Virus record (IMG/VR): IMGVR_UViG_3300033153_003999
Coordinates: 1-63,536 of that record
DNA: 63,536 nt
From: a virus
Lineage: Duplodnaviria; Caudoviricetes
Strand: one strand, 5' to 3'
A program made the position numbers and the translations under genes. How positions within the stretch are numbered: position 1 is the stretch's first letter; the number at the start of each line of letters is the position of its first letter. The notes below the pieces were generated by a model, which saw nothing but the letters and a program-made list of their open reading frames with translations, was not told where the DNA came from and made no database searches. Below, piece after piece: positions 13,812-60,149 of the stretch.

Positions 13812-14243
13812 ATGGAGTTTGCTCAGGCTTTTCTCTGCGGCAAGCCGCATGACACCGACTTCGAGCCACCAATTCACTACAGATCGGCCAAGACCGGCGG
13901 TCTGGGGCGCAAGTACAATGGTGGTCGCAATCGATGGACGCCGGAAGAGAATCGGATCCTGGTCGAGAACTACCCGATCTCGGGCGTGGAGGGTTGTGTG
14001 CTGTTGCTACCGAATCGTAGCCCGCAGGCCATATCTGTCCAGGCCTGTAAGAAGCGGGTCACGAGCAGCTACAACAGTGGCGCCATTCGCGCGCCATGGT
14101 CAGTTCTTGAGAACGAGATCGTGGCCAAACACGATAGCCCGCAACTGGCCGTTGCCGAATTGGCTCGAGCCGGCTTCACCCGCAGTTACGCAGCCGTGAA
14201 TCAGCGCATAAGCCAGTACAGCAAAAAGCATGGCAATCGTTGA
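13812..14243 (+). CDS. Myb/HTH-repeat DNA-binding protein
   Basis: RWTPEENRIL..NRSPQAI and WSVLENEIV..TRSYAAV repeats. Confidence 0.6.
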   Translation: MEFAQAFLCGKPHDTDFEPPIHYRSAKTGGLGRKYNGGRNRWTPEENRILVENYPISGVEGCVLLLPNRSPQAISVQACKKRVTSSYNSGAIRAPWSVLENEIVAKHDSPQLAVAELARAGFTRSYAAVNQRISQYSKKHGNR

Positions 14244-15702
14244 GAACGAGGAAAACGAGGAGCACGTCGAATACTGGGCAGAGCCCACAATGGAGGCATT
14301 TCACGCGGATGATAGCTATGTCCGTGGACTGAGAGGCCCAATCGGTAGCGGCAAGTCCGTTGCCATGGTGTTCGAGTGTATTGGCCGCGGCAAGCGACAG
14401 GCGGCTGGGCCAGATGGTATCCGGCGTAGTCGCTGCGCGATCATACGAAACACGTATCCAGAGCTGAAAACCACGACGGTCAACACCTGGAAGGACTGGA
14501 TACCGGAGAATCATTACCCGATTAATTGGGGAACACCGATTACCTGCCGTGTCGTGGTGCCACTCAAGGACGGCACCACCATGGACATGGAGGTAGTTTT
14601 CCTTGCGCTGGACAGGCCAGCCGATATTAAGAAGCTGCTATCGCTTGAATTGACCTTTGCCTGGATCAATGAGGCACGGGAATTGCCGCACGAGATCGTG
14701 GAGGCGGTGACATCCCGACTCGGTCGTTTCCCGGGCAAGAAATATGGAGCTCCAATTACGTGGACGGGCCTGTTCATGGACACCAACCCACCGGATGACG
14801 ATCACTGGTGGTATCGCATGTTTGAAGTCGAGAAGCCGCGCAACTGGCGCCAATTCTCGCAGCCACCGGCTTTGATTAAGTACGGCGAAGACTACATGCC
14901 CAACCCGGATGCTGAGAACATCAAGAACCTGCAGCTGGGTTATGACTACTATCTCAACATGCTGGGCGGCAAGACCTATGACTGGATCAAGGTCTATATC
15001 ATGGGTCAGTACGGCACCGTCCAGGACGGCAAGCCCGTCTACCCCGAGTACGTGGATAGTCTGCACTGTGCCGAGGAAGAGCTTGAGCCCATACGGGGCT
15101 TGCCGCTGCGGCTTGGCTGGGACTTTGGGCTCACGCCGGCTGTAGCCATATTCCAGCAGACGCCCGGTGGCGGCATTATCGTTATCGAGGAAGTGGTCAG
15201 CGAGGACATGGGTATACGCCGGTTCTCGCGCGATATGGTCAAGCCCGTGCTCGCCAACCGGTATGAGGGCATGATTCTCGTCAGTACCGGTGATCCAGCC
15301 GGTACTCAGCGCGTCCAGACCGAAGAAAACACGTGCATGCAGGTGCTCATGGAAGAAGGCATTGCCACCCAGCCGGCACATACCCAGGAATATATCGCCA
15401 GACGTGAGTCTGTTGCCGACTTCCTGGTATCAACGGATATCGACGGCAAGCCAGCTTTCCAGCTCTCGCCCAGATGCCGGATCCTGAGAAAGGGCTTTAA
15501 CGGCGCCTACAAGTATGAGCGCATCCAAGCCGCAGGACAGGGCTACGAGGTCAGACACAAGGATCGCCCGGGTAAGAGCCGGTTCTCACACGTGCACGAA
15601 GGCCTCCAATATGGAGTTATGGAATTGACCCGGGGCTACAAGATCGAGCGTCCGAAATCGAGACAGGTTCAACGCAGGACAAGCCGCGGCTGGGCCGCAT
15701 AG
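14230..15702 (+). CDS. terL: terminase large subunit
   Basis: GPIGSGKS Walker A, WINEARE Walker B, DTNPP, LGWDFG nuclease. Confidence 0.96.
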   Translation: MAIVENEENEEHVEYWAEPTMEAFHADDSYVRGLRGPIGSGKSVAMVFECIGRGKRQAAGPDGIRRSRCAIIRNTYPELKTTTVNTWKDWIPENHYPINWGTPITCRVVVPLKDGTTMDMEVVFLALDRPADIKKLLSLELTFAWINEARELPHEIVEAVTSRLGRFPGKKYGAPITWTGLFMDTNPPDDDHWWYRMFEVEKPRNWRQFSQPPALIKYGEDYMPNPDAENIKNLQLGYDYYLNMLGGKTYDWIKVYIMGQYGTVQDGKPVYPEYVDSLHCAEEELEPIRGLPLRLGWDFGLTPAVAIFQQTPGGGIIVIEEVVSEDMGIRRFSRDMVKPVLANRYEGMILVSTGDPAGTQRVQTEENTCMQVLMEEGIATQPAHTQEYIARRESVADFLVSTDIDGKPAFQLSPRCRILRKGFNGAYKYERIQAAGQGYEVRHKDRPGKSRFSHVHEGLQYGVMELTRGYKIERPKSRQVQRRTSRGWAA

Positions 15703-36654: not shown

Positions 36655-38694
36655 TTGCCAACAATAGACATCACATCCTTTCGCGGTATTCGGCCAAGAG
36701 CCAGCTCAAGACATATTAAAAATGAACAGGCACAAATAGCGCAAAATTGTCGCATTACTTCCGGTGCCGTAGAGGCATGGCGTAATAAAAAACTTATTTC
36801 CACTCTTACCCTTGCTGGTGAGATTAAGACGATCTACCAGTTTCCTGATGGAAAATGGCTACAGTGGAATGAGGAAGTTGATGTTGTTGAGGCGCCTGTT
36901 GCTGGCGACACGACAGATCGTATTTATTTCACCGGTCTGGATAAACCGAGGGTAACAAACAGCACGCTTGTTGATGTCAGTGCTCCTACGACCGGATCTA
37001 TTACTGGCGCCAGTAAGGCCAGCCCTTGTGTAATTACTGACGTGGCTCACGGCCTATCATCCGGAATGTTTGTCGATATTGCCGGCGTTGGTGGCATGGT
37101 TGAGCTGAACGATCTTCGTTACAAGATCACTGTAATTGATGCCGACTCTTTCTCTCTGGATGGTATCGATAGCACGACGTTCACCACTTATACTTCTGGC
37201 GGTACCTGGACTCGTGTCGAGAATATTTATCCAGAAGATTCCTACGTTGTTGGTGTCCCTGCTCCTGTGACTGCTCCAACAGCAGCTTTAGTTAGCACAC
37301 ATACTACCCCTGAAAATACGGCCTACGTTTATACCTATGTGAACGCGTGGGGAGAAGAAGGCCCGCCTTCGCCGGCATCAAACATTGTGTTGGCTGATTT
37401 TTCTACCGGTTCGGTGGATCTCACGACCATGGATGCGGCCCCCGCTGATTATCTGGATTATGTCCCGATAACAAAATGGCGCATTTATCGTGTGGCAACT
37501 GGCACGGCTGGCGCCGATTATCAATTCGTGGCTGAGGTCACGATTAACGTCAGCAGTCCGCAATATAATGACGCCATTCTGACTGCCAACCTGGGCGAGA
37601 TTCTTTCGACCACGGATTATGATGTTCCGCCTGCCGGCCTCATGGGCATAAAGTCTATGGCGAACGGTATCGTTGCCGGCTTTACCGGGAACACAATCTA
37701 TTTCTGTGAACCATTCCTGCCGTATGCGTGGCCTGACAAGTACACGCTGGTAACCGATTTCGAGATCGTCGGCCTCGGTACGTTTGGTAATTCGCTTGTT
37801 ATTACGACTGAGGGGCCACCTTATTTAGCAACCGGTACTTCTCCTGATGCCATGAGCATGGATAAGTTGCCTCACCCGCAACCCTGTATCCAGAAGCGCG
37901 GCATAGTCGATGTCCAGGGCGGGGTGCTTTATCCAACATCAAATGGCCTGTTCTTTATCGGTGATGGTGGCGCACGACTGGCCACTGAGAAATATTATAC
38001 TCGTCGTGAATGGCAGGACATGGCGCCCAATACCATGGTCGCCATCTGGTATGACAACCGGTATTTTGCCTATCTTCCCACCGAACAGTATGTGCTTGAG
38101 TATCAGCCTCAAGAAGATGAATTAACCACCATCAACATGAATGGTGCCGTAACAGCTTTTTACCTAGATCAAATAAGCGATTATCTATATTTCTGCCAGC
38201 AAGAAAACGGTGACAACGATATATATCAATTTGCGGCAGAAGCTACGCGCATGACTTTTCTCTGGCGCTCAAAGAAATTTGAAATGCCAATGAATTTGAC
38301 TCTTACTGCTGCGAGAGTGGTGGGAGATTTTGAAGCGGCTTTAACTCAAGACGAACTTGATGCGCTGACAGCGGCGAGAACGACAGCACTTGCCAACAAT
38401 GCTGCAAAAATAGCTGCTGGCACTGTTGGCGGATCAGTCAACTCATTTGCTGTGAATGTTCAGGAAGTGAATGGCGACGATCTTGAGATCGTTCCACCGT
38501 TACCAGAGGATACGAAGTATTCTTTCCATTTAATCGTGGATGGCGTAAGCAGATATGATGGTTACTTTACTGATAACGAGCCAATGAGATTGCCGGCTGG
38601 CTATCGTGGTCGAACTGTTGAAATTGAAGTTGATGGCAGCTTTCCGCTGCATAGAGTAATTTTAGGAACATCGGTTCAGGACGTGATGCGATGA
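36655..38694 (+). CDS. tail nozzle/stabilisation protein with FCCH-like insert
   Basis: F.GI.PR...AQ.A.NC; YVYTYVN.WGEEGPPS; FCEP..PYAWP..Y; WRSKKF. Confidence 0.8.
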   Translation: MPTIDITSFRGIRPRASSRHIKNEQAQIAQNCRITSGAVEAWRNKKLISTLTLAGEIKTIYQFPDGKWLQWNEEVDVVEAPVAGDTTDRIYFTGLDKPRVTNSTLVDVSAPTTGSITGASKASPCVITDVAHGLSSGMFVDIAGVGGMVELNDLRYKITVIDADSFSLDGIDSTTFTTYTSGGTWTRVENIYPEDSYVVGVPAPVTAPTAALVSTHTTPENTAYVYTYVNAWGEEGPPSPASNIVLADFSTGSVDLTTMDAAPADYLDYVPITKWRIYRVATGTAGADYQFVAEVTINVSSPQYNDAILTANLGEILSTTDYDVPPAGLMGIKSMANGIVAGFTGNTIYFCEPFLPYAWPDKYTLVTDFEIVGLGTFGNSLVITTEGPPYLATGTSPDAMSMDKLPHPQPCIQKRGIVDVQGGVLYPTSNGLFFIGDGGARLATEKYYTRREWQDMAPNTMVAIWYDNRYFAYLPTEQYVLEYQPQEDELTTINMNGAVTAFYLDQISDYLYFCQQENGDNDIYQFAAEATRMTFLWRSKKFEMPMNLTLTAARVVGDFEAALTQDELDALTAARTTALANNAAKIAAGTVGGSVNSFAVNVQEVNGDDLEIVPPLPEDTKYSFHLIVDGVSRYDGYFTDNEPMRLPAGYRGRTVEIEVDGSFPLHRVILGTSVQDVMR

Positions 38695-40652: not shown

Positions 40653-43600
40653 TGGCGCAAGATCCATGGGCAGTTGTTACCGATGAGGGGCAAGACGATC
40701 CATGGGCTGTGGTCGTAGAAGAGAAGCCTGCCGCCGAACCCCTATCTCTATCCTTCGATCAAGGCGAAGCCGTCACCCCTGCCGGTGAAGAAAAGGTACC
40801 GTTTGGTGTCGTCCCCACTGGCTACAAAGAAGAAGTCCCCTATCTCCCGTCTGGCGAGACCATTGGAAAGGTGATCTCGACTGAAGGCGACCCCATCGGC
40901 ACCACCATCCAGAAGTCACTCACCCAAATTCCTCCACTATTACAGGCCACGGCTGGCGGCCAACTCCAAGCCCTTGGCGAGGACGTTCCCGATATTGAGC
41001 GCCTGACCGCGATTGATGTTGCTGGTGATGGAGACGAGTTCGAGATCCCTGACTATTTGCAAGACAAGCCTTCCGTAGATGCGGCTGAGTTGCTGCGCGA
41101 GACCGGCAGAAAGACCTATATGGCCGGGATGAAGGAAGCAGGGCGTCGAGCTCCAAACGTGCCGGAGGGGTCGTTCAAAAAATATGTTGCTGACGTGACG
41201 GTTGCGACAGGCCTTATGTTGCCTTCGCTCGCGGCCGGCGTTGTCACCAAGAACCCTAACGTGGCGCTGGCCGTCATGTATCCGCAGGTAGCAGGGCAGG
41301 AATACGGTCGCCAGCGGGCTGAAGGCCAAGACCGTGACGTTGCCCATGCCAGAGCCCTGGTTATCTCGTTATCAGAGATCGTCACCGAAAAGCTGCCGTT
41401 CGACCAGTTTATTAAAGGCAAGGGCAAGAACATCCTTGGCCGTATATTTAAGGCCATAGGGCTTGAGGGCGGGCAGGAGTATGTCCAGGCCGGTGTCGAG
41501 GTGTTGGTTGATGAAGGCCTGCTCGAGTGGGATATGCCTGCTGCCGAGGCTCTGAGCAAGATAGGTCAGCTCCTTGCCGACCCTGAGAATCAGAAGAAGA
41601 TGCTGTATCAGGCTCTTGTCGGCGCCGGCATGGGCGGTGTTCTCGGTACCCCCGCTGCCATTGCACAGGGTTTCCAAAAGCCGGGAGAGGCCATACCAGA
41701 TGACGTGGAGCCAATACCGGGCTTTAAGGCCGAGGATTTGTTTGGTGCCGTGGAAGAGGAAGAGGTTGCCCCGGCCCCTGAACTTGAAGCACCTGTTGAC
41801 GAGTGGGCGGAAGAAGAACCGCCAGCTCCGGAAGAGGACTACACCGAGCCAGAGCCCAGCTACGGGATCCCCGAACCAGAGGCAGTGGCGCCGCCAGAGC
41901 CGGAGATCGTGGAGCCAGCTGCAGAGGAGCGTGCTCCAACCATCAAACCGTGGAAGGGTAGAAAGCGGTATGGTATGCAGCCGGTAGACGCGCGCTATGA
42001 CGACCTTCTTGCCGTTGCTGCCAAGAGTGGCGGTATCAATATCGACGCCGCTACCAGCGAGGGCATAGATCCTGCCATCTTGCGAGACCGCTTGGGCGGC
42101 GGCAAGATGCCGGTATTCCGCAAGGAAGGCGGAATGACTATCGATTCCTTGGCTGAAAAACTGGAAGAGCTGGGCTTTATCGATGAACGTGACGCCAATG
42201 CGGCGCTCGATGTTCTGACCGACGCCGTGACCAAGGAGGCTGCTGGCGAACGCGTGTACTCGAATCAGGTCGATGCCGACATGCTGGCCGAGACCAGGAA
42301 AGAGCCGACCCCGGAAGAGGAGGCCTTCGAGCCCACCGACGTTAAGCAGGATCTCGACGATCTCATGGAGCAGGCCCAGGAAGCGGCCACCACGCAGGAG
42401 CAAGAGCTTAGGCTCGAGCGCATATTGTCCCGCGACATCGAGACTCCTGACGCCGAAATGCAGCAGGCTCTCGCCGACTTTATCGACGAGACCCGCACCC
42501 TGGCACCAAAGGCGTCAACTACCGCTATCCCTGAACAGGAAAGCCGTCGTCGTAATATCGCCTACCGGAAAGATCTTGAGCAGTTGACGCCTGACGAAAT
42601 GCGCGAGGCCGTTGCTAAATTGCGCGAGGACGCGACCCGCGATCCCATGACTGGGGCGCGCTCGTTCTCAGCTTTTGAGGATGATGCCGACCTGGGCTGG
42701 GAATATGTTGGCGCTGCCGACATGGACGGCATGGGCTGGTACAACGATAACTGGGGCCATCAGGCCACCAACGATCTGCTTAAATCTGTGGCAGACGCTA
42801 TGAATACAGTGGAAACGGAGCAAGTGCGTTTCTACCGGCTGCATGGTGACGAGTTTGCCGTGCGAGCCACCAGCGAGGAATTTGCCCGGTCTGCACTGGA
42901 AGAGGTACAGAAATTGCTTGCCTCTTCACCCGTGGAAGTGAGCGGGCTCAATGAAAAAGGTGAGCGCCAGACTTTCAAAACGGAAGGATTAGGCATAACC
43001 TACGGTGTAGCGAAGAGCTACGAGGAGGCTGATAGTGAAGCAAATGAATGGAAGCAAAAGCGCCAGCAGCGCGGCAAGCGGGCTGCAAAAGGTAAGGAAC
43101 CTGTTGGTCTGGGCAAAAAGCCTGCCGCCGTTGAAAAACGTCCGCGTGAAGGTATCCCTACCGAAGAAGGCGTAGCCGACACCGAGATCACAAAACAGGT
43201 AGACGCTAAGAAGAAAAAGAAGGTTGTATCAAGGCCGGCACAAAGGAAAGCCAAGGTCTACCAGCCTATTAGTGATGGTGTTCTTACTCACACCAAGCTC
43301 TTTGGCGATAGCTCTGGTGCTAAGTCCTTGAAGTCTCAAAGTTTTAAGTCTCTCAAGAGGGACGAACAACATGTGGTGCTCACGAAGATGAGAGCTGCGT
43401 TTAACGACGACAAGATTTTCAGGGCTGTTATCAATACCATTCCCGTTGATATGATGAACGTCCTCATCGGGAAGAAGTGGTCTACCAAGGATCTCCTCCA
43501 TAACAAGTCTATGCTCACCAATAGGCTTACCGTCTCGCGTAACGTACCGATAACGAAGTCCATAATCAGCGTCATCGATGAGCTTTCTGCCGCGATCGAA

Positions 43601-46600
43601 GGTAGACCTACACAGGCGGTTACAAAAAAACCTAGTTTGCGTGGCCGCCCTAGCCTTGTTGAGCTTCCTGGTGACAGGGGTGCCGCAGTTAAGGCAATTA
43701 GCGGTGATATTTGGCATGGAAAAATAGCTGGTCAAGAAGTAGAAGTTGACCTTAACCCAACAGAAGCACAAAAGGAAGCAGGGAATTATTCCAAAGGGGC
43801 AATCTCAATTCAAGGCCTAGACATTACCATTGAGAACCCGAAGGGCAGCCGGCGCCGTCCCGAGTGGCCGGAACTCACAGCCCATTATGGTTACATCAAG
43901 CGCACCGAAGGCGCTGACGGAGACCATGTCGATGTGTTCCTTGGCGACAATGCCGAGACTGCTGGCACCCTGTTTATCATCGACCAGAACGACCCCAAGA
44001 CAGGCAAGTTTGACGAGCACAAGGTCGTCATCGGCCCGTTCAATGAGGTCGATGCGGTCAATCTGTACAACTCAAATTATGAGAAAGGCTGGCGTGGTGC
44101 CGAGGCCGTCAATGAACTGGATATTGCTGACTTCAAGGTATGGCTGGAGAAGGGCGATACCACCAAACCATTCGCAGACCAGGCAAATGCCGCATGGTCG
44201 CAGGAGAAGCCCACAAAATACGATAAATATGCCGATGAACTGAAAACTTTGATTCGCGTGGAAGGCATTAAGGAAGCTGCCCTGGCGCTGATTAAGAGTG
44301 GCAAGGATCCGCGCACGATGACGAAGCCAAAGGCTTTGTCTGATTCGCTTAACAATCAGTCGGTGTTGAGTTATGTCTTTGAGCAGAGCGAAAAAGCCAT
44401 CGAGACCGAGCTGGATAAGGTTGAGAAAAAAGAGGGCAAAGCCTTTGCAGATGAAATGCAGCGGCACGTTGTCGCTACTTTTCTCGAAAGCACTGAACCA
44501 ACCATGCTCAGCGGCGAAAATCTGCGCCTATTGGTGAAGGAGTATGAAGCTGCGCTGGTCAAGATAGATCTTGTTGAGCCGGAGGTTATTGCAAAACCAG
44601 AAGCGGTCGCACCAGAAGGAAGCGAGGAAATTTATACCAGGATCCGCGCCTACAACGAGAAAGACTTCCAACAGGAGCGCGTGGAAAATCTGCGCCTGAT
44701 GGCTAAAGCACTCGGTTTCAGCAAAGTATCCACCAAGCCAAAACAGGATCTCATTAAGGAACTGACGATCTGGCGTGATGCCAGCGCGATCAGCAAACTG
44801 CCAATCCCTGGCGATATAACCCTAATTCAGGAGGACCAGGAAACGATTGCCGGAGAAGCTATCACCCTGGTTACCGTGCCAGAAGGCACTAAACCCGAAA
44901 CCGTTGAAAAGCTGGAAATAATCTCCAGGCATTTCGGTGGAACAGGCTATACTGAGAGCAAGGCAGTCAAGGGAAGCACTGAAAAGGGGCTCCGGTTCCG
45001 TGATAGAACCGGCCTCGATAACTTCCTCGACTACGTGGAGACCGCCCATGAACCTACAGAACTGGAAAGACCAAGCCCGCGACCACTGGAAGGAGCACCT
45101 GCCGAAAAGGTACAAGGCGTTGCTCCAGAAAGGGGCGCTCGAGGCGTCACTGAACGAGGCCGTGATCGCGACAGAGCGCGAGATGAACGCGCTGACGAAC
45201 GCGGGCCAGGAAGAGTGGGAGGCGTGGGAGCAGGTCAGGCAGAGCTATCTCTTCCTGTCGCCCGAGCAGACACCGGCCACGACTACGTAATTACTGCCGA
45301 AGACAGTCTCGGTGCCGGTGGCGCCAAGACCAAGGCCGCGGCCAACATCGAGGCAATTCGCCTCCTCAAACAAATCGAAGTCGAACAACGTCAGGCCACG
45401 CCCGAAGAGCAGGCTGCCCTCGTTAAGTACGTGGGCTGGGGCGGAATCCCGCAGATCTTCGACAAAGACAACACTGGATGGGCCAATGAATATTTCGAGC
45501 TGAAGAACACGCTGACAAGCGAAGAGTATGCTGCTGCCCGTCGTTCTACCCAGGACGCGCACTACACGTCACCGACTGTGGTTAAGGGCATATTCGACGC
45601 CCTGCACCGGTTCGGGTTCAAGCATGGTCGCATCCTCGAGCCATCAATGGGCACCGGCAACTTCTTCGGCATGATGCCGGTCGAGGTTCGCGGCAAGTCC
45701 AAAATGACCGGCGTCGAGCTGGATCACATCACTGGCGGTATCGCCAAACTCCTGTACCCCACCTACGATATTCACTCTCCCAAGGGATTCCAGGAAGTAG
45801 ACGTTCCCGAGGGCTACTTCGATATTGCTATCGGCAATCCTCCCTTTGGATCCCAGAAGGTGTTCGATGCCAAGCACAAGGATATTTCCGAGTTCTCGAT
45901 CCACAACTATTTCTTCGCCAAGTCGCTGCTGAGTGTGCGGCGGGGTGGCGTTATCGCCATGGTGGTCAGCAACTCCCTGCTGGACAAGTTCGGTGGCGCC
46001 CAGCGTGCGTGGCTGGCAGAGCGGGCTAGATTCCTTGGCGCCATTCGTTTGCCGAACAACGCCTTTAAGAAAAATGCGGGCACAGAAGTCACGACCGACA
46101 TCATCTTCCTGCAACGCAAGGCCAGTATCGGAGCACCGACAAAGGGTAAGAGCTGGGCAGACATCAACGACACTGTTTCGGATCCGGCGACCGGCAAGCC
46201 GATACCGATGAACGAGTATTTTGTTGCGCGCCCGGAAATGATGCTTGGCGAAATGACGCTCGGCGGCACGATGTATCGTGGCGAAATGGCGGCATTGATC
46301 GCGCCCGAAGGCCAGAACCTTGAGAAGGCGCTTGCCGACGCTGTCAAAAACCTGCCTGAGTTTATCTACGAGGAAAGCCATGGTCGGGTAGCGGAGATTA
46401 CGGAAGCTGATTCCGTCATGCCGCTGGACGAGATCAAGGTCTACAGCTACTTCGTAAACGAGAAGGGTGAGGTCAGTCGCCGTCTGCCGGATCAGATGGA
46501 CAAGGCGCAGATGGAGGTCATGGATTTATCGCCAACGGTGTCGGCCCGCATGAAGGGGTTGGTCAAATTGCGGGATCTCGTCCGTCGTCAGATGCACGAC

Positions 46601-49600
46601 GAAATGAGCGTCGATGCCACGGAGAAGAACCTGGACGGCTTCCGTATGCGATTGAATCTTGAGTACGATCGCTTCACCAAGAAGTACGGCGCCATCCACG
46701 CCGAGGGCAACAAGCGCGCCTTCCGTGACGACCCGGATTATGGTCTGTTGCAGGCGCTTGAAGTCGATTATGACAAAGGCATAAGCAAGGCCGTTGCCAA
46801 AAAATCTGGTGTCGAGGCCGTTAAGCCCAGCTGGAAAAAGGCTGACATATTTACCAAGCGCGTGCTCGTACCTTACAAGCCCGTCGATTCTGCCGAGACA
46901 GCCGAAGATGCGTTGCTCGTCACCCTGGCTGAGAAGGGTTTTGTCGATATTGAGCACATGGCGAAGCTGACCGGGCAGGAAGAGGTTGATCTTGTTGCCG
47001 AACTAAAAGGCATCATTTTTAATGATCCCGAGCTGGGGTGGACGACAGCTGATGATTATTTGTCTGGCAATGTTAAGCATAAGCTCAAAATTGCACGTGA
47101 AGCCGGGTTATCAGACTACGCAGAAGCTCTTGAGAAAGTGCAGCCAGAAGATACTGAGGCTATCGACATCGATGCCAGCATGGGTGCCCCGTGGGTGCCT
47201 GCTGCTGACGTGAAAGCCTTTGTGAAGGAATTGCTCGACGTTGATGCAGCCCTGTCATATCAGCCTACTGTCGGCGCATGGTTCGCCAAGATCCCGACCG
47301 CCTACGGTGTGGCCGGTACCGAGGTATGGGGTACACCGAAAGCCAACGCCAGCTATCTGATTGAGCAGGCGCTCAAGGGCAAGAACGTGGTCGTGCGCGA
47401 CAAGGTCAAAGGCCCGGACGGTGATATTTCCGTTATCAACCAGCCCAAGACTGCTGCGGCACAGCTGAAAATGAAAGAGATCAAGCGCGAGTTTGCTGAC
47501 TGGCTCTGGCACGATCAGGCAAGGCGCACCCGCTTGGCGAAGTATTACAACGACACGTATAACACTAACCGCGTGCGTGAGTTCAAGGATCCTGGCCTGC
47601 AATTCCCGGGCATGAACCCAGCCATTACCTTGCGGCCGCACCAGAGAGATTTGGTTTGGCGTATTATTCAAGAAGGCCGGGGATTGCTCGATCACGTTGT
47701 CGGCGCGGGCAAAACTTTTGCCGCTATCGCTGCCGTTATGGAAATGCGTCGCATGGGTCTCGTTCGTAAGCCGATAATTACGGTGCCGAATCATTTAGTG
47801 ACCCAGTGGGCAGGTGACTTCCATCAGCTCTACCCGGGGGCCAAGATCCTGGCAGCTACCAAGAAGGATTTCCAGAAGGCTAATCGTCAACGCCTGTTCG
47901 CCCGCATTACTACCGGTGACTGGGACGCGATTATTGTCGCTCACTCCAGTTTCGAGCGTGTGCCGGTTCCACCTGAGTTCGAGGCCGAGCTGTTAAAGCA
48001 ACAGATCACCGACATTGATGCTGCCATGACCTCCCTCAAGGAAGAAACCGGCGACCGGATCTCGGTCAAGCAGCTCGAGAAACAGAAGGATCGAGTCAAG
48101 GAAAAGATGGAGCGCGCTGCCAAGGGCAAGGAAAAGGACACGGGCGTTAACTTCGCTGAAATGGGTATCGATCAGCTTATCGTGGACGAGAGCCACGTGT
48201 TTAAGAACCTGTTCTTCTCCACCAGCAAGACTCGTGTCGCCGGCATTGGCGACGGTACCGGCAGTCAGCGTGCCTTCGATATGTTCGTGAAGAATCGTTA
48301 CCTGCAAAAACTGAACAACGGTAAGGGCACGATCTTCCTTACCGGTACGCCTATCAGCAACACGATTGCCGAGATGTACACCGTTCAACGCTATCTCCAG
48401 TACGACGAGCTTGCCAGTCGTGGTCTCGCCCACTTCGATGCCTGGGCCAACGTATTCGGCAATGTCGTCAGCGGGTGGGAGCTGGATGCTACCGGCGTGA
48501 ATTACAAGATGAACAGCAGGTTTGCCGAGTTCGTCAACATGCCGGAATTGATGACGCTCTATCGCAGCGTGGCCGACGTCGTGAATCAGGAAGATCTCAA
48601 GCGTCAGGCTAAGGCTGCCGGCAATGTCTGGCCGGTTCCAGACATTAAAGGCGGCAAGCCTGAGTCCGTGATCGCGCCCAGGTCGGACTATCAGACAAGG
48701 TATATGATGGACATCGTTCACCGCGCTGAGAATATGCCGACGGATTCCAGCATAGACAATATGCTCAAGGTCACGAACGACGCCAGAAAGATGGCGCTCG
48801 ACATGCGTCTTATCGATCCCGTGGCTGAGGACTTCCCGGACAGCAAGGTCAACAAGGCTGTTGATCGTGTCTACGATATTTATAAGAAATGGGATAGTCG
48901 TAAAGGCACGCAATTGATCTTCTCGGATCTGTCCACACCGAAGGGGGCCAAGAAAGTTGTGGTCATTACCGGCGAAGAGGTCGAGACCGAAGGCCTGTCC
49001 ATGGACGATATCCTCGCAGCTGGCTCTAAATTCGATGTCTATAACGACATTAAAGCCAAGCTGATTAAGAAGGGTATCCCCGAAGCCCAGATCAGGTTTA
49101 TCCACGACGCCAACACCGATCTGCAAAAAGATCAGCTATTCAAGGACATGAACACCGGCAAGGCGCGCGTGCTCATAGGATCCACGGAGAAGATGGGCAC
49201 TGGCACGAATGTACAGCGCAGACTCGTTGCCCTTCATCACCTGGACGCGCCTTGGCGGCCGTCAGATATTGAACAGCGCGAAGGCCGTATCGTGCGCCAG
49301 GGCAATGAATTCTTTATGCAGGCGCTCGAGGCCGGGGATCCTTCCAGCTTTGAGGTCGAGGTATTGCGCTACGCCACCGAGCGAACCTATGACGCTCGCA
49401 TGTGGCAGACCCTTGAGGTTAAGGCCAAGTTCATCGAACAGCTTCGCAAGGGAGACACCAGCCTGCGTAAAGTCGAGGACGTGGCCGGCGAGGCTGCCAA
49501 CTTTGCTGACCTGAAAGCTGCTGCTACTGGCAACCCGCTTATATTGGAGCAGGTCAAACTCGCTGCCCAGGTGCAGAAGTACGACCAACTCAACACCCAG

Positions 49601-55841: not shown

Positions 55842-57464
55842 TTATGGGAAAAGGCTCTCGCTGGCAACAATGTTATTTCTGTTTACCCTGATTAATTCTG
55901 GTTTTTTCAGGTCGCCAAGGTAGGTTGTAAACGTCCCGCTGGTGACGGATATATTTGCCGCATCAGCTATCTCGTTTCGTGTGATTCCTTCCGGGCCAGC
56001 ATCAACGATGGCCTGCAACATACGGCAGGCGCCGGCTCGCAGTTTCCTTTTCCACTGGCTCATAATCTCGTCGTGCGTTGCTGGCTTGCTTGGAATATCG
56101 GATCCAAGATATTCAATGCCGGCGTCGTTTGTTGCTATGCCGGGGCCGCTCTCATACAGATAGCCAAGCGCGCGAATATCTCCCAGATAGGTTGTAAATG
56201 TTCCGGAAGTTGGGCTGATGTCGGCCAGCATGCCGAGCTGGTTGCGTGTCAAACTGTCTGGATAGGCTGCGGCCAGCTGTTGAAGCATGCGGCGCGCGCC
56301 TTTTCTAAGAGTGGTGTCAGTTACCACGCTTTCCCGTTTAACCTGTTTTTCTTCCTGCCCTGCTTTTTGCCGGTGTCTGGCAAGAACCCGCTCTACTTCG
56401 TTGATTAGTTTTTTGCTATCACCAGGAATTACCACCTTTTCCCGTTTGATCTTAGCCACGGCTTTGGCAATTCTTTTCTGGACTTCCTGCTCTGGTATAC
56501 CAGTCTTATCGGCCTTTCTGAGGGCTATTGTCAGATCGCGCCTGATCCTCGCGTTTTCTGTTTTGAGTTCGGCAAGGGATTTGGCCTCACGCTCCGCTTC
56601 TTTTGGGAGATCAGCCAGTTTTGCCAGCACCTTCTTGATTTTGGCAGAGGGCGCGGGAGGGGTTTCTATCAGGCGTTGACCGACTTTCGGGTGTCTGGTT
56701 ACGACCGGGCCGACAAGAATCCTGGTGACTTCCCGGGTAAAGGCTGGGCCAAAAACAAAAAACTCGCCTTCGTTGAAATTGCGTAAAGTTTGCGTGGCTT
56801 CTTTTGGTGACATGCCCAGCTCGTCGGCTGCTCGTTTTACGTCAATATCCAAGCCTGTGCGCCCAATCAGCTTGTTTATACACTCTGCGGCAACATCTTT
56901 GTGCAGCTTGGATAGTCTCTGAGTGGCCGTTATCAGGCATTGGCCGCGCTTGCGACCACGGGTGGCGACATCTATCACGGCGCCAGTGCTTTCAGATTTC
57001 CCCTTCTCCGGGGCGTAGACATGGGCCTCGTCGAGGATAATGCAGACCGGGCGCCATAATTTTTTGGGGGCGTTCACCAGGGCGTCGAGGAAAAGCCTGA
57101 CAAATGCTTGCCGCTCGTGGGCTTTGAGATCATAAATATCAAGGACTGCCGAGACGCCGGTTTCCAGTAGACGCTTTGCCAGCATGGCCGCCGTTCTCGG
57201 GTGCGCCAGGGCGTCGCCATCGTGCTGGGAGCAAATTACGAAGTCGTATTTCTCGCGCAGTGTGCTGAATTCTCCCTCTGGATCTATAACCAATACCTGC
57301 ACATGATTTACTATCTGCTCGATAATCCGGCGCAATGTCCAGGACTTGCCGCCACCAGAGTTAGCCTGAATCAATAGACGTGTTTCCAGTAGGCGCGGTA
57401 TATCGATAGATACTTTTATCTTTTCTTTTGCTGGCCCTACGGTACCTATGAATGGTTTAGTCAT
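55842..57464 (-). CDS. HerA/FtsK-like (DUF87) ATPase with tandem C-terminal winged helices
   Basis: ANSGGGKS, IDPEGEF, ILDEAH, RGRKRG, ATQR. Confidence 0.85.
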   Translation of the reverse strand: MTKPFIGTVGPAKEKIKVSIDIPRLLETRLLIQANSGGGKSWTLRRIIEQIVNHVQVLVIDPEGEFSTLREKYDFVICSQHDGDALAHPRTAAMLAKRLLETGVSAVLDIYDLKAHERQAFVRLFLDALVNAPKKLWRPVCIILDEAHVYAPEKGKSESTGAVIDVATRGRKRGQCLITATQRLSKLHKDVAAECINKLIGRTGLDIDVKRAADELGMSPKEATQTLRNFNEGEFFVFGPAFTREVTRILVGPVVTRHPKVGQRLIETPPAPSAKIKKVLAKLADLPKEAEREAKSLAELKTENARIRRDLTIALRKADKTGIPEQEVQKRIAKAVAKIKREKVVIPGDSKKLINEVERVLARHRQKAGQEEKQVKRESVVTDTTLRKGARRMLQQLAAAYPDSLTRNQLGMLADISPTSGTFTTYLGDIRALGYLYESGPGIATNDAGIEYLGSDIPSKPATHDEIMSQWKRKLRAGACRMLQAIVDAGPEGITRNEIADAANISVTSGTFTTYLGDLKKPELIRVNRNNIVASESLFP

Positions 57465-60073: not shown

Positions 60074-60149
60074 TGGCTTTTCCAATGGGAATCGAACCCA
60101 CGACATTACGCCTAAACGCGTATGCTCTAACCAGCTGAGCTATGGAAAG
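60074..60149 (-). tRNA. atypical tRNA (76 nt, encoded CCA, 6-nt anticodon loop, C1xA72 mismatch); isotype undetermined
   Basis: CTTTCCA TA GCTC AGCTGGTTA GAGC A TACGC GTTTAG GCGTA ATGTC GTGGG TTCGATT CCCAT TGGAAAA G CCA. Confidence 0.85.

Follow-up and report, generated by a model that had tools for sequence, protein, structure and literature searches.

Within a complete virus record of 63,536 bp (IMG/VR record IMGVR_UViG_3300033153_003999, Caudoviricetes; hereafter, the window), an HNH endonuclease gene lies on the minus strand inside the longest open reading frame (ORF), a plus-strand gene that encodes a giant polyvalent protein (the host gene and host protein), and the two genes are read codon on codon. 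We interpret this gene as a selfish HNH element that dispenses with splicing: it sits antisense in the host gene and would be read through as a spacer, and we infer that its nuclease is expressed and homes. We assign this reading a probability of roughly 0.75. To our knowledge, selfish endonuclease genes have been thought to persist in essential coding DNA only through splicing, or else to reside between genes. The present case and its relatives suggest that they may also hide antisense, leaving the host frame open and chemically harmless.

Anatomy of the antisense HNH gene

The minus-strand ORF (43229..43771) spans 180 amino acids (aa) from a TTG codon; from the ATG at 43717 it encodes 162 aa and a stop. 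It is codon-aligned with the host frame, the codons of both starting at positions equal to 2 modulo 3. The HNH gene overlaps host residues 860-1022, between the GGDEF and InPase domains, and the host frame stays open throughout. A Pfam search of the minus-strand product identified HNH_3 (PF13392) at residues 69-111 (E 2.6e-9; score 37 bits, cut-off 24.8) and HTH_38 at residues 122-150 (E 2.6e-6; score 27.5 bits, cut-off 27), and both DNA-binding modules that flank an HNH core, a zinc ribbon and a helix-turn-helix (HTH), are present. When the protein was aligned with seven relatives, 20 columns were invariant, including all four cysteines (Cys) of the ribbon, and the core residues invariant in these eight proteins were E68, H69, R70, H88, H89, N97, N101 and H110.

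The AlphaFold2 model of the HNH product has a mean predicted local distance difference test score (pLDDT) of 77, with values of 84-94 over residues 61-110, which cover most of the HNH_3 match. A Foldseek search of the Protein Data Bank (PDB) with this model gave no match at E <= 0.001; the best one was I-HmuI (1u3e), at a probability of 0.95, yet weak (E 0.016, TM 0.35). A sequence-profile search of the PDB returned matches to the HTH region only, and I-HmuI was not among them. Judged from its sequence, the gene is an intact zinc-ribbon, HNH_3 and HTH endonuclease gene whose product is predicted to cut DNA. An earlier, preliminary description of this DNA had claimed a complete, codon-aligned zinc finger-HNH-HTH gene of 162 aa on the minus strand, located between GGDEF and InPase, with the giant ORF open across it. 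Translation, Pfam and frame arithmetic agree with the first part of that claim, and Pfam positions and the ORF list with the second.

Long antisense ORFs are common within the giant gene (ORFs of 343 aa, at 41372-42403, and of 377 aa, at 47993-49126, are examples), and the gene might accordingly be dismissed as a chance antisense ORF in G+C-rich DNA. The probability of this is practically nil: the Pfam matches to HNH_3 and an HTH, together with 169 confirmed HNH relatives in viral contigs, refute it, and G+C content falls locally to only 0.45-0.50 at the insert, as compared with ~0.55-0.60 in its flanks.

The same arrangement in other genomes

The plus-strand peptide had initially appeared to resemble no recognizable domain. 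It is not an orphan: look-alikes occur in more than 1,000 protein clusters, because those proteins carry the same kind of insert. BLASTP located them in the giant proteins P0006 (42% identity), P0010, P0013 and P0048, and a profile of the plus-strand peptide (hereafter, the shadow profile), searched against 1.84 billion representatives, matched 1,247 at E <= 1e-3, 376 at E <= 1e-10 and 36 at E <= 1e-30. Among the best 150 matches, 126 proteins have a length of 1,000 aa or more, and 91 have one of 2,000 aa or more.

Scanning viral contigs with an alignment of the plus-strand peptide yielded eight loci. Both codon-aligned frames are open in seven of these, and in all seven the antisense frame encodes an intact zinc-ribbon HNH protein. 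The eighth, L091, is a free-standing HNH gene that still matches the plus-strand peptide even though its antisense frame is closed, indicating that the plus-strand similarity is the shadow of the HNH gene. A scan of viral contigs with an HNH profile recovered 80 loci, 19 of them antisense in open frames of 645-3,299 aa. These 19 loci, seven of which are the contigs from the peptide scan, range in G+C content from 0.33 to 0.69.

A tree of 72 distinct HNH proteins (nine identical duplicates were dropped) placed all 20 embedded genes, including that of the window, in a single group of 22 rows, with a Shimodaira-Hasegawa-like approximate likelihood ratio test (SH-aLRT) value of 84. The label "embedded" changes three times on this tree, as compared with 17.6 times in shuffles, and none of 500 shuffles gave a number as low. 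The nearest HNH relative of the window is that of L100, at 43% identity.

Codon choice and the host-frame product

In a codon-aligned antisense register, the only sense codons of the HNH frame that create a stop in the host frame are TTA, CTA and TCA, and ACA and GCA in the HNH frame become Cys in the host frame. As the preliminary description had noted, the HNH gene of the window never uses TTA, CTA or TCA; none occurs at its 6 Ser or 21 Leu positions, and Leu is encoded by CTT 14 times. ACA and GCA are also unused. Resampling synonymous codons from the phage's own usage gave a probability of 0.038 for the absence of antisense stops, and of 0.0019 for the absence of antisense Cys codons as well.

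The comparative evidence is the stronger argument, and the dual open frames are not a product of chance. A similarity search at the protein level supplied 80 HNH relatives, of which only five lack antisense stops, all of them at a G+C content of at least 0.58. Every one of these relatives at a G+C content of 0.43-0.52 has between 3 and 16 antisense stops; the G+C content of the window gene is 0.48. Translated in the host frame, the 20 embedded genes contain 0.0% stops and 0.0% Cys, the latter because ACA and GCA are never used. In the same register, 22 G+C-matched free-standing relatives (of 53 free ones) show 1.7% stops and 2.3% Cys. The embedded host frames are also depleted in Trp, Tyr, Phe and His, and enriched in Asp, Gly, Lys, Asn and Ser.

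The host protein has no Cys among its 4,089 residues, as compared with 26 in ~5,700 residues of nine other phage proteins. Similarly, the best 150 shadow-bearing proteins contain 0.03% Cys overall, and their shadow segments 5 Cys in 22,264 residues. That the insert keeps the Cys-free rule of the host protein can be understood only if the insert belongs to that protein; most likely, the host protein is made straight through the insert. For the resulting spacer, AlphaFold2 gave a mean pLDDT of 52.5, and its ends are predicted to be disordered. As to why the giant protein is Cys-free, passage through the tail or oxidizing conditions can be offered as guesses.

Searches for splicing elements

Rfam, whose scope is described families, gave no match at E <= 1 on either strand of positions 42500-44500, and across the whole window it returned only a tRNA at gathering thresholds. 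In the giant protein, Pfam at E <= 0.01 detected neither a Hint nor an intein domain. With Rfam and Pfam both negative, the initial impression that no intron or intein signal is present stands.

Homing endonuclease genes usually reside in introns or inteins, and a ribozyme of a new kind would be invisible to Rfam; the segment could thus be removed after all, by an unrecognized intron, an intein-like element or translational bypassing. We regard such removal as very unlikely. Besides the negative Rfam and Pfam searches, a segment that is removed would have no need of a host frame free of stops and Cys, yet all 20 embedded genes have one, as compared with the stops and Cys codons seen in the free genes. 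Moreover, the plus-strand peptide contains no Cys, and the usual Cys splice nucleophile is therefore unavailable.

Expression signals

Taking as starts the codons located 3-6 codons before the first Cys, we examined 19 copies of the HNH gene (18 other loci and the window) for a Shine-Dalgarno sequence; AGGA, AGGAG, GGAG or GGAGG lies 5-9 nucleotides (nt) before the start in nine of them. A scan for promoter patterns found three sites, as compared with 0.8 +/- 0.8 in shuffles. A weak promoter-like site lies 68 nt upstream of the HNH ATG, antisense of InPase-coding sequence. A similar scan for terminator patterns found three, as compared with 1.8 +/- 1.4 in shuffles. The motifs GGTATTT and TGGTACAAT, which occur upstream of some relatives, are confined to subclades and are at most candidate promoters.

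Selection on the two frames

In this register, position 3 of the HNH codons stands opposite position 1 of the host codons. Across eight genes (148 ungapped codons), the HNH frame had a higher amino-acid identity than the host frame in all 28 pairs (means 0.41 vs 0.29). The single-base codon differences among these genes comprised 608 that are silent in the HNH frame only versus 216 that are silent in the host frame only, pairwise counts that are descriptive, as they are not phylogenetically independent. In the set of 20 genes, HNH-frame identity exceeded host-frame identity in 190 of 190 pairs.

The HNH gene also leaves a footprint that can be read at the protein level, without DNA, in 155 shadow segments taken from the best 150 matches. 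Opposite H69, H88 and H89, these segments have M or V only (155/155 each); opposite N97 and N101, I or V only (155/155); opposite H110, M or V (154/154); and opposite C36, A or T (145/146). Opposite C32, in a poorly aligned column, compatible residues were found in 56 of 139. The presence of only M or V, and never I, L or A, opposite the catalytic His residues is the mark left by His codons of the opposite strand. On these comparisons, the HNH frame is under purifying selection and is the more strongly conserved of the two. The preliminary description had proposed comparing selection between the strands, and both the pairwise identities and the silent differences come out on the side of the HNH gene.

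A weaker, additional constraint on the host frame is also hinted at. At matched HNH identity, embedded genes show less third-position divergence than free ones (for example, 0.61 vs 0.68-0.70) and a higher host-frame identity (0.24-0.49 vs 0.17-0.36), which points to such a constraint. One might then argue that the plus-strand peptide is a real, selected domain of polyvalent proteins and the HNH frame a fossil or by-product, all the more so as the peptide occurs in more than 1,000 clusters and its middle is predicted to be helical, at a pLDDT of ~70. This argument has a very slender chance of being right, given that the HNH frame is the more identical one in every pair and accumulates the larger share of silent differences, that all 155 segments have only M or V opposite the catalytic His, that the free-standing L091 matches through a closed antisense frame, and that nearly half of the copies (9/19) have a Shine-Dalgarno sequence at 5-9 nt from the HNH start.

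Insert borders and probable mobility

At this place, the insert-free proteins P0007-P0009, in which GGDEF and InPase follow in the same order, contain nothing but a short linker of low complexity. On the left, the insert is bounded by the stop codon of the HNH gene: P0006 has an unrelated upstream context and becomes similar to the host protein of the window from aa 862-863 onward, 2-3 codons beyond the HNH stop. At the right limit, the InPase lead-in "GQEV..NPT", common to the insert-free L002, follows ~4 codons after the HNH ATG. We compared 14 other hosts near the insert by BLASTP; 12 matched, only within about aa 829-1035, and two did not. The similarity is limited to the insert in 10 of the 12 matching hosts and continues into InPase in L112 and L117. 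These comparisons place the insert at ~43229-43729, hardly more than the ORF itself. Insert-free homologues, which had been suggested as a means to define the junctions, thus set approximate borders (P0007-P0009 and L002). An imperfect 14-nt direct repeat (12 of 14 positions matching) flanks the insert at 43238-43251 and 43766-43779. We rejected it as a target-site duplication; by our estimate, chance alone would produce roughly one pair of this kind in a stretch of 851 nt.

The host domains next to the insert vary across loci and include InPase, ART-PolyVal, ddrB-ParB, Acb1 and RadC, which rules out that the insert always accompanies InPase. It adjoins InPase in P0006 and L112, as in the window; it splits InPase between "HYGYI(R/K)" and "TEGADGDHVD" in P0013 (aa 946-1355) and P0048 (aa 537-848); and it lies more than 1,000 aa away from InPase in L114. 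Two shadow copies occur within one giant host gene in L087 (the second at aa ~722-889) and in L103 (aa ~1185-1329), which we read as probably carrying two antisense HNH inserts, intact or as remnants. A comparison of L084 with L087 gave 53% identity for the insert, no match for the immediate flanks and 29% identity for distant parts of the host.

As separate observations, several of the representatives matched by the shadow profile show 2-3 matched stretches, and the giant polyvalent-type ORF of L104 (3651-6800, minus strand) carries the anti-CBASS domain Acb1 (PF23474, E 3.4e-39) at host aa 814-957, ~215 aa downstream of its antisense HNH insert.

A presence/absence pattern was observed for the gene that hosts the nearest HNH relative (L100/L180). 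A six-frame search of 58 related loci with the HNH profile found 57 without an HNH gene, and the sole carrier is the same contig. The proteins of L181-L183 are 83% identical to that of L180 over the best segment and ~140 aa shorter; the alignment shows a ~40-aa linker in them where L180 has ~186 codons. In L180, the shared sequence runs up to "...KVE" and is followed immediately by the HNH stop codon, placing the left junction exactly there. The upstream flank of L180 resembles the empty alleles L181, L184 and L233, and the downstream flank resembles others, L185, L186 and L227, which suggests a recombination joint at the insert. These alleles support the view that the element is mobile, and that it would come and go among close relatives of the L100/L180 host gene.

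For the window itself, relatives were scarce. A blastn search returned two short matches in phages, limited to the InPase region, and none in plasmids. Protein-guided scans found two loci in viral contigs and eight in metagenome contigs, the latter at no more than 60% identity, all matching in InPase only. Apart from the protein of the window itself, a word-indexed protein search returned distant relatives only.

These findings bear on a further explanation, namely that the antisense HNH gene is no longer mobile but is domesticated or vertically inherited, travels with shuffled polyvalent modules and is of use to the phage, for instance in keeping out competing phages or in cutting host DNA. 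The differing neighbors would then reflect domain shuffling and not homing. Polyvalent proteins are indeed strongly shuffled, the neighboring domains vary and the inserts of P0006 and L112 adjoin InPase as in the window; in addition, the viral and metagenome contig scans found no empty allele of the phage itself, and the window copy seems to have no expression signals of its own. We nevertheless judge domestication unlikely. It does not account well for the 57 of 58 host relatives of L100/L180 that lack the HNH gene, alleles of 83% identity among them, with a junction exactly at the stop codon, nor for an insert that is far more similar between L084 and L087 than the flanks or the rest of the host, nor for hosts with two shadow copies.

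Comparison with known systems

I-HmuI combines an HNH core with a C-terminal HTH DNA-binding module, as the window protein does, and was its best, albeit weak, fold match. It resides in a self-splicing group I intron of a phage and is read on the host strand, whereas Rfam found no intron around the window HNH gene. Intein endonucleases are likewise selfish nucleases in a host gene whose frame stays open, and they are part of the host-frame polypeptide, from which they are excised by Hint-domain splicing. The window nuclease differs in being encoded on the other strand, with no Hint domain and no Cys in the host-frame insert. Finally, the free-standing homing endonuclease genes of phages, such as the seg and mob genes of T4, or mobE, whose insertion splits the ribonucleotide reductase gene of Aeh1, resemble the window gene in having no intron or intein and a start of their own. 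Such genes lie between genes or break the host gene, whereas the host ORF of the window stays whole.

The closest published parallel is provided by the ShiLan domain and the Pacc40 gp60 insert, described by Arsenault, Gosselin and Gogarten in the main text of a 2025 article on hidden out-of-frame HNH elements in DNA methylase genes of mycobacteriophages (PMC11855218). These inserts share with that of the window a zinc-finger HNH gene placed within a coding gene of a phage, a stop-free host frame, the absence of a detectable intron or intein and a host-frame product without a known domain; they also occur sporadically among related genes, as does the insert of the L100/L180 host gene. The ShiLan insert contains little beyond the ORF, which starts 18 bp in and stops within the last 4 bases (PMC11855218); the window insert is similarly compact, its left limit being the stop codon and its ATG lying within ~12 nt of the right limit. 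The two differ in several respects (PMC11855218, main text). The ShiLan HNH gene occupies the third frame of the same strand, whereas that of the window is codon-aligned on the opposite strand; the ShiLan host is a methylase, whereas that of the window is a giant Cys-free polyvalent protein; and the codon constraints are not the same, the window gene avoiding TTA, CTA, TCA, ACA and GCA. Expression also differs, as the window gene would need a separate minus-strand transcript in place of internal initiation on the host mRNA. None of the words antisense, reverse, opposite, complement and orientation appears in the main text of PMC11855218, and our literature search, which covered the main texts in one library, found no description of an antisense HNH gene inside a coding gene. 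The window element is, on this comparison, the antisense form of a hidden HNH insertion element, the same-strand form of which is already published (PMC11855218).

Polyvalent proteins of phages and conjugative elements were defined by Iyer et al. 2017 (PMC5512222). In terms of the domains given in its main text, the window protein resembles them by its InPase domain, and its relatives by ART-PolyVal, ddrB-ParB and RadC. Antisense genes, homing, inteins and cysteine go unmentioned in the main text of PMC5512222.

A model of antisense insertion and its standing

In the model that we favor, a compact, mobile, I-HmuI-like HNH gene would have settled on the opposite strand in the linker between GGDEF and InPase, where synonymous codon choice is all that it needs to leave the host frame open. 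The ribosome translating the host gene would read the reverse complement of the HNH gene as a spacer of ~165 residues, with no splicing of RNA or protein. The HNH protein would be made from a minus-strand transcript and, during co-infection, would cut insert-free alleles, the repair of which would copy the element in. The preliminary description had already proposed a splicing-free way of invading a gene, tolerated as a linker; the absence of splice signals, the linker site, the host frame free of stops and Cys, the selection on the HNH gene and the presence/absence pattern all speak for that proposal.

Several observations weigh against this model. The codon-avoidance statistics are modest for the window alone (P 0.038; 0.0019 with Cys), and the pairwise substitution counts, lacking phylogenetic independence, serve as description only. 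The tree group of embedded genes, with its SH-aLRT of 84, is not starred and contains two free-standing rows. No close relative or empty allele of the phage was found in the phage, plasmid, viral, metagenome and protein collections. The HNH ATG of the window has no Shine-Dalgarno sequence, which 21 of the 37 plus-strand ORFs of the window do have. This ATG lies only ~12 nt from InPase sequence, which seems to leave the element without its own promoter, and the sole promoter-like site lies in host sequence. Lastly, residues 41-100 of the spacer have a pLDDT of ~67-74 and are predicted to be helical, so the spacer is not fully disordered, and the plus-strand peptide may be more than a passive linker.

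A broader proposal, to which we would give even odds, is that one HNH clade has specialized in a fourth mode of dwelling in genes: antisense, codon on codon, in giant Cys-free proteins delivered with the virion. Its codon usage would be tuned to a harmless spacer without stops or Cys and with few aromatic residues, both strands of ~500 bp would be under selection in more than 1,000 clusters, and the helical core may even have been co-opted as a structural spacer.

The arrangement has implications beyond this phage. It offers a natural, widespread and old example of ~160 codons that code on both strands, and hence a test bed for shared DNA. Gene callers report only the giant ORF, such that the nuclease genes are missed and the shadow peptide can be mistaken for a new domain. 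It also exposes a rule, by which giant polyvalent proteins are Cys-free and the invader obeys. Filled and empty alleles, such as those of the L180 and L181 types, constitute a direct system for studying homing without introns.

The host gene and other features of the window

Pfam domains of the host protein comprise GGDEF, InPase, an Eco57I-type methylase, SNF2/ResIII and Helicase_C. By its size, its many domains and the presence of conflict-related domains such as InPase, the host gene is classified from sequence as one for a phage polyvalent protein. Genes for internal virion proteins precede it; a PHROGs search of the neighbors matched 36655-38694 to phrog_511, "internal virion protein". 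The host protein is probably delivered with the virion, or injected. The coordinates of the features are collected in Table 1.

Table 1. Features of the host gene and of the antisense HNH insert in the window.
Feature	Position	Strand	Basis
Host gene, polyvalent protein, 4,089 aa	40652..52921	+	ORF list, Pfam
GGDEF domain (aa 690-796), 5' of insert	42719..43039	+	Pfam PF00990, E 1.4e-8
Weak terminator-like hairpin and T-run, ~155 nt downstream of HNH stop	43060..43072	-	Consensus only
HNH endonuclease gene, 162 codons and TGA stop	43229..43717	-	Translation, Pfam HNH_3 and HTH_38
Insert in host frame, aa 860 to ~1026, Cys-free Lys/Ser-rich spacer	43229..43729	+	Similarity limits, AlphaFold2
C-terminal helix-turn-helix, aa 122-150	43268..43354	-	Pfam HTH_38 and other HTH families
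HNH_3 catalytic core, aa 69-111 (EHR ... VHHINGNGIDN ... ENL ... H)	43385..43513	-	Pfam
N-terminal zinc ribbon (C8, C11, C32, C36)	43610..43696	-	Four Cys invariant in 8-relative alignment
InPase domain (aa 1038-1166), directly 3' of insert	43763..44149	+	Pfam PF18823, E 1.3e-41
Weak sigma-70-like promoter match (TTGAAT, 17 nt, AATAAT, with TG)	43785..43813	-	9/12 consensus match only

Two minor features lie elsewhere in the window. A second, partial TerL-type match is found on the minus strand at 55842-57464 (phrog_2666, E 1.5e-20), the other TerL-like gene being located at 14230-15702. The tRNA at 60074-60149 (minus strand) is called as such by Rfam (50 bits), and ARAGORN gives it an odd two-base anticodon, "(tt)".

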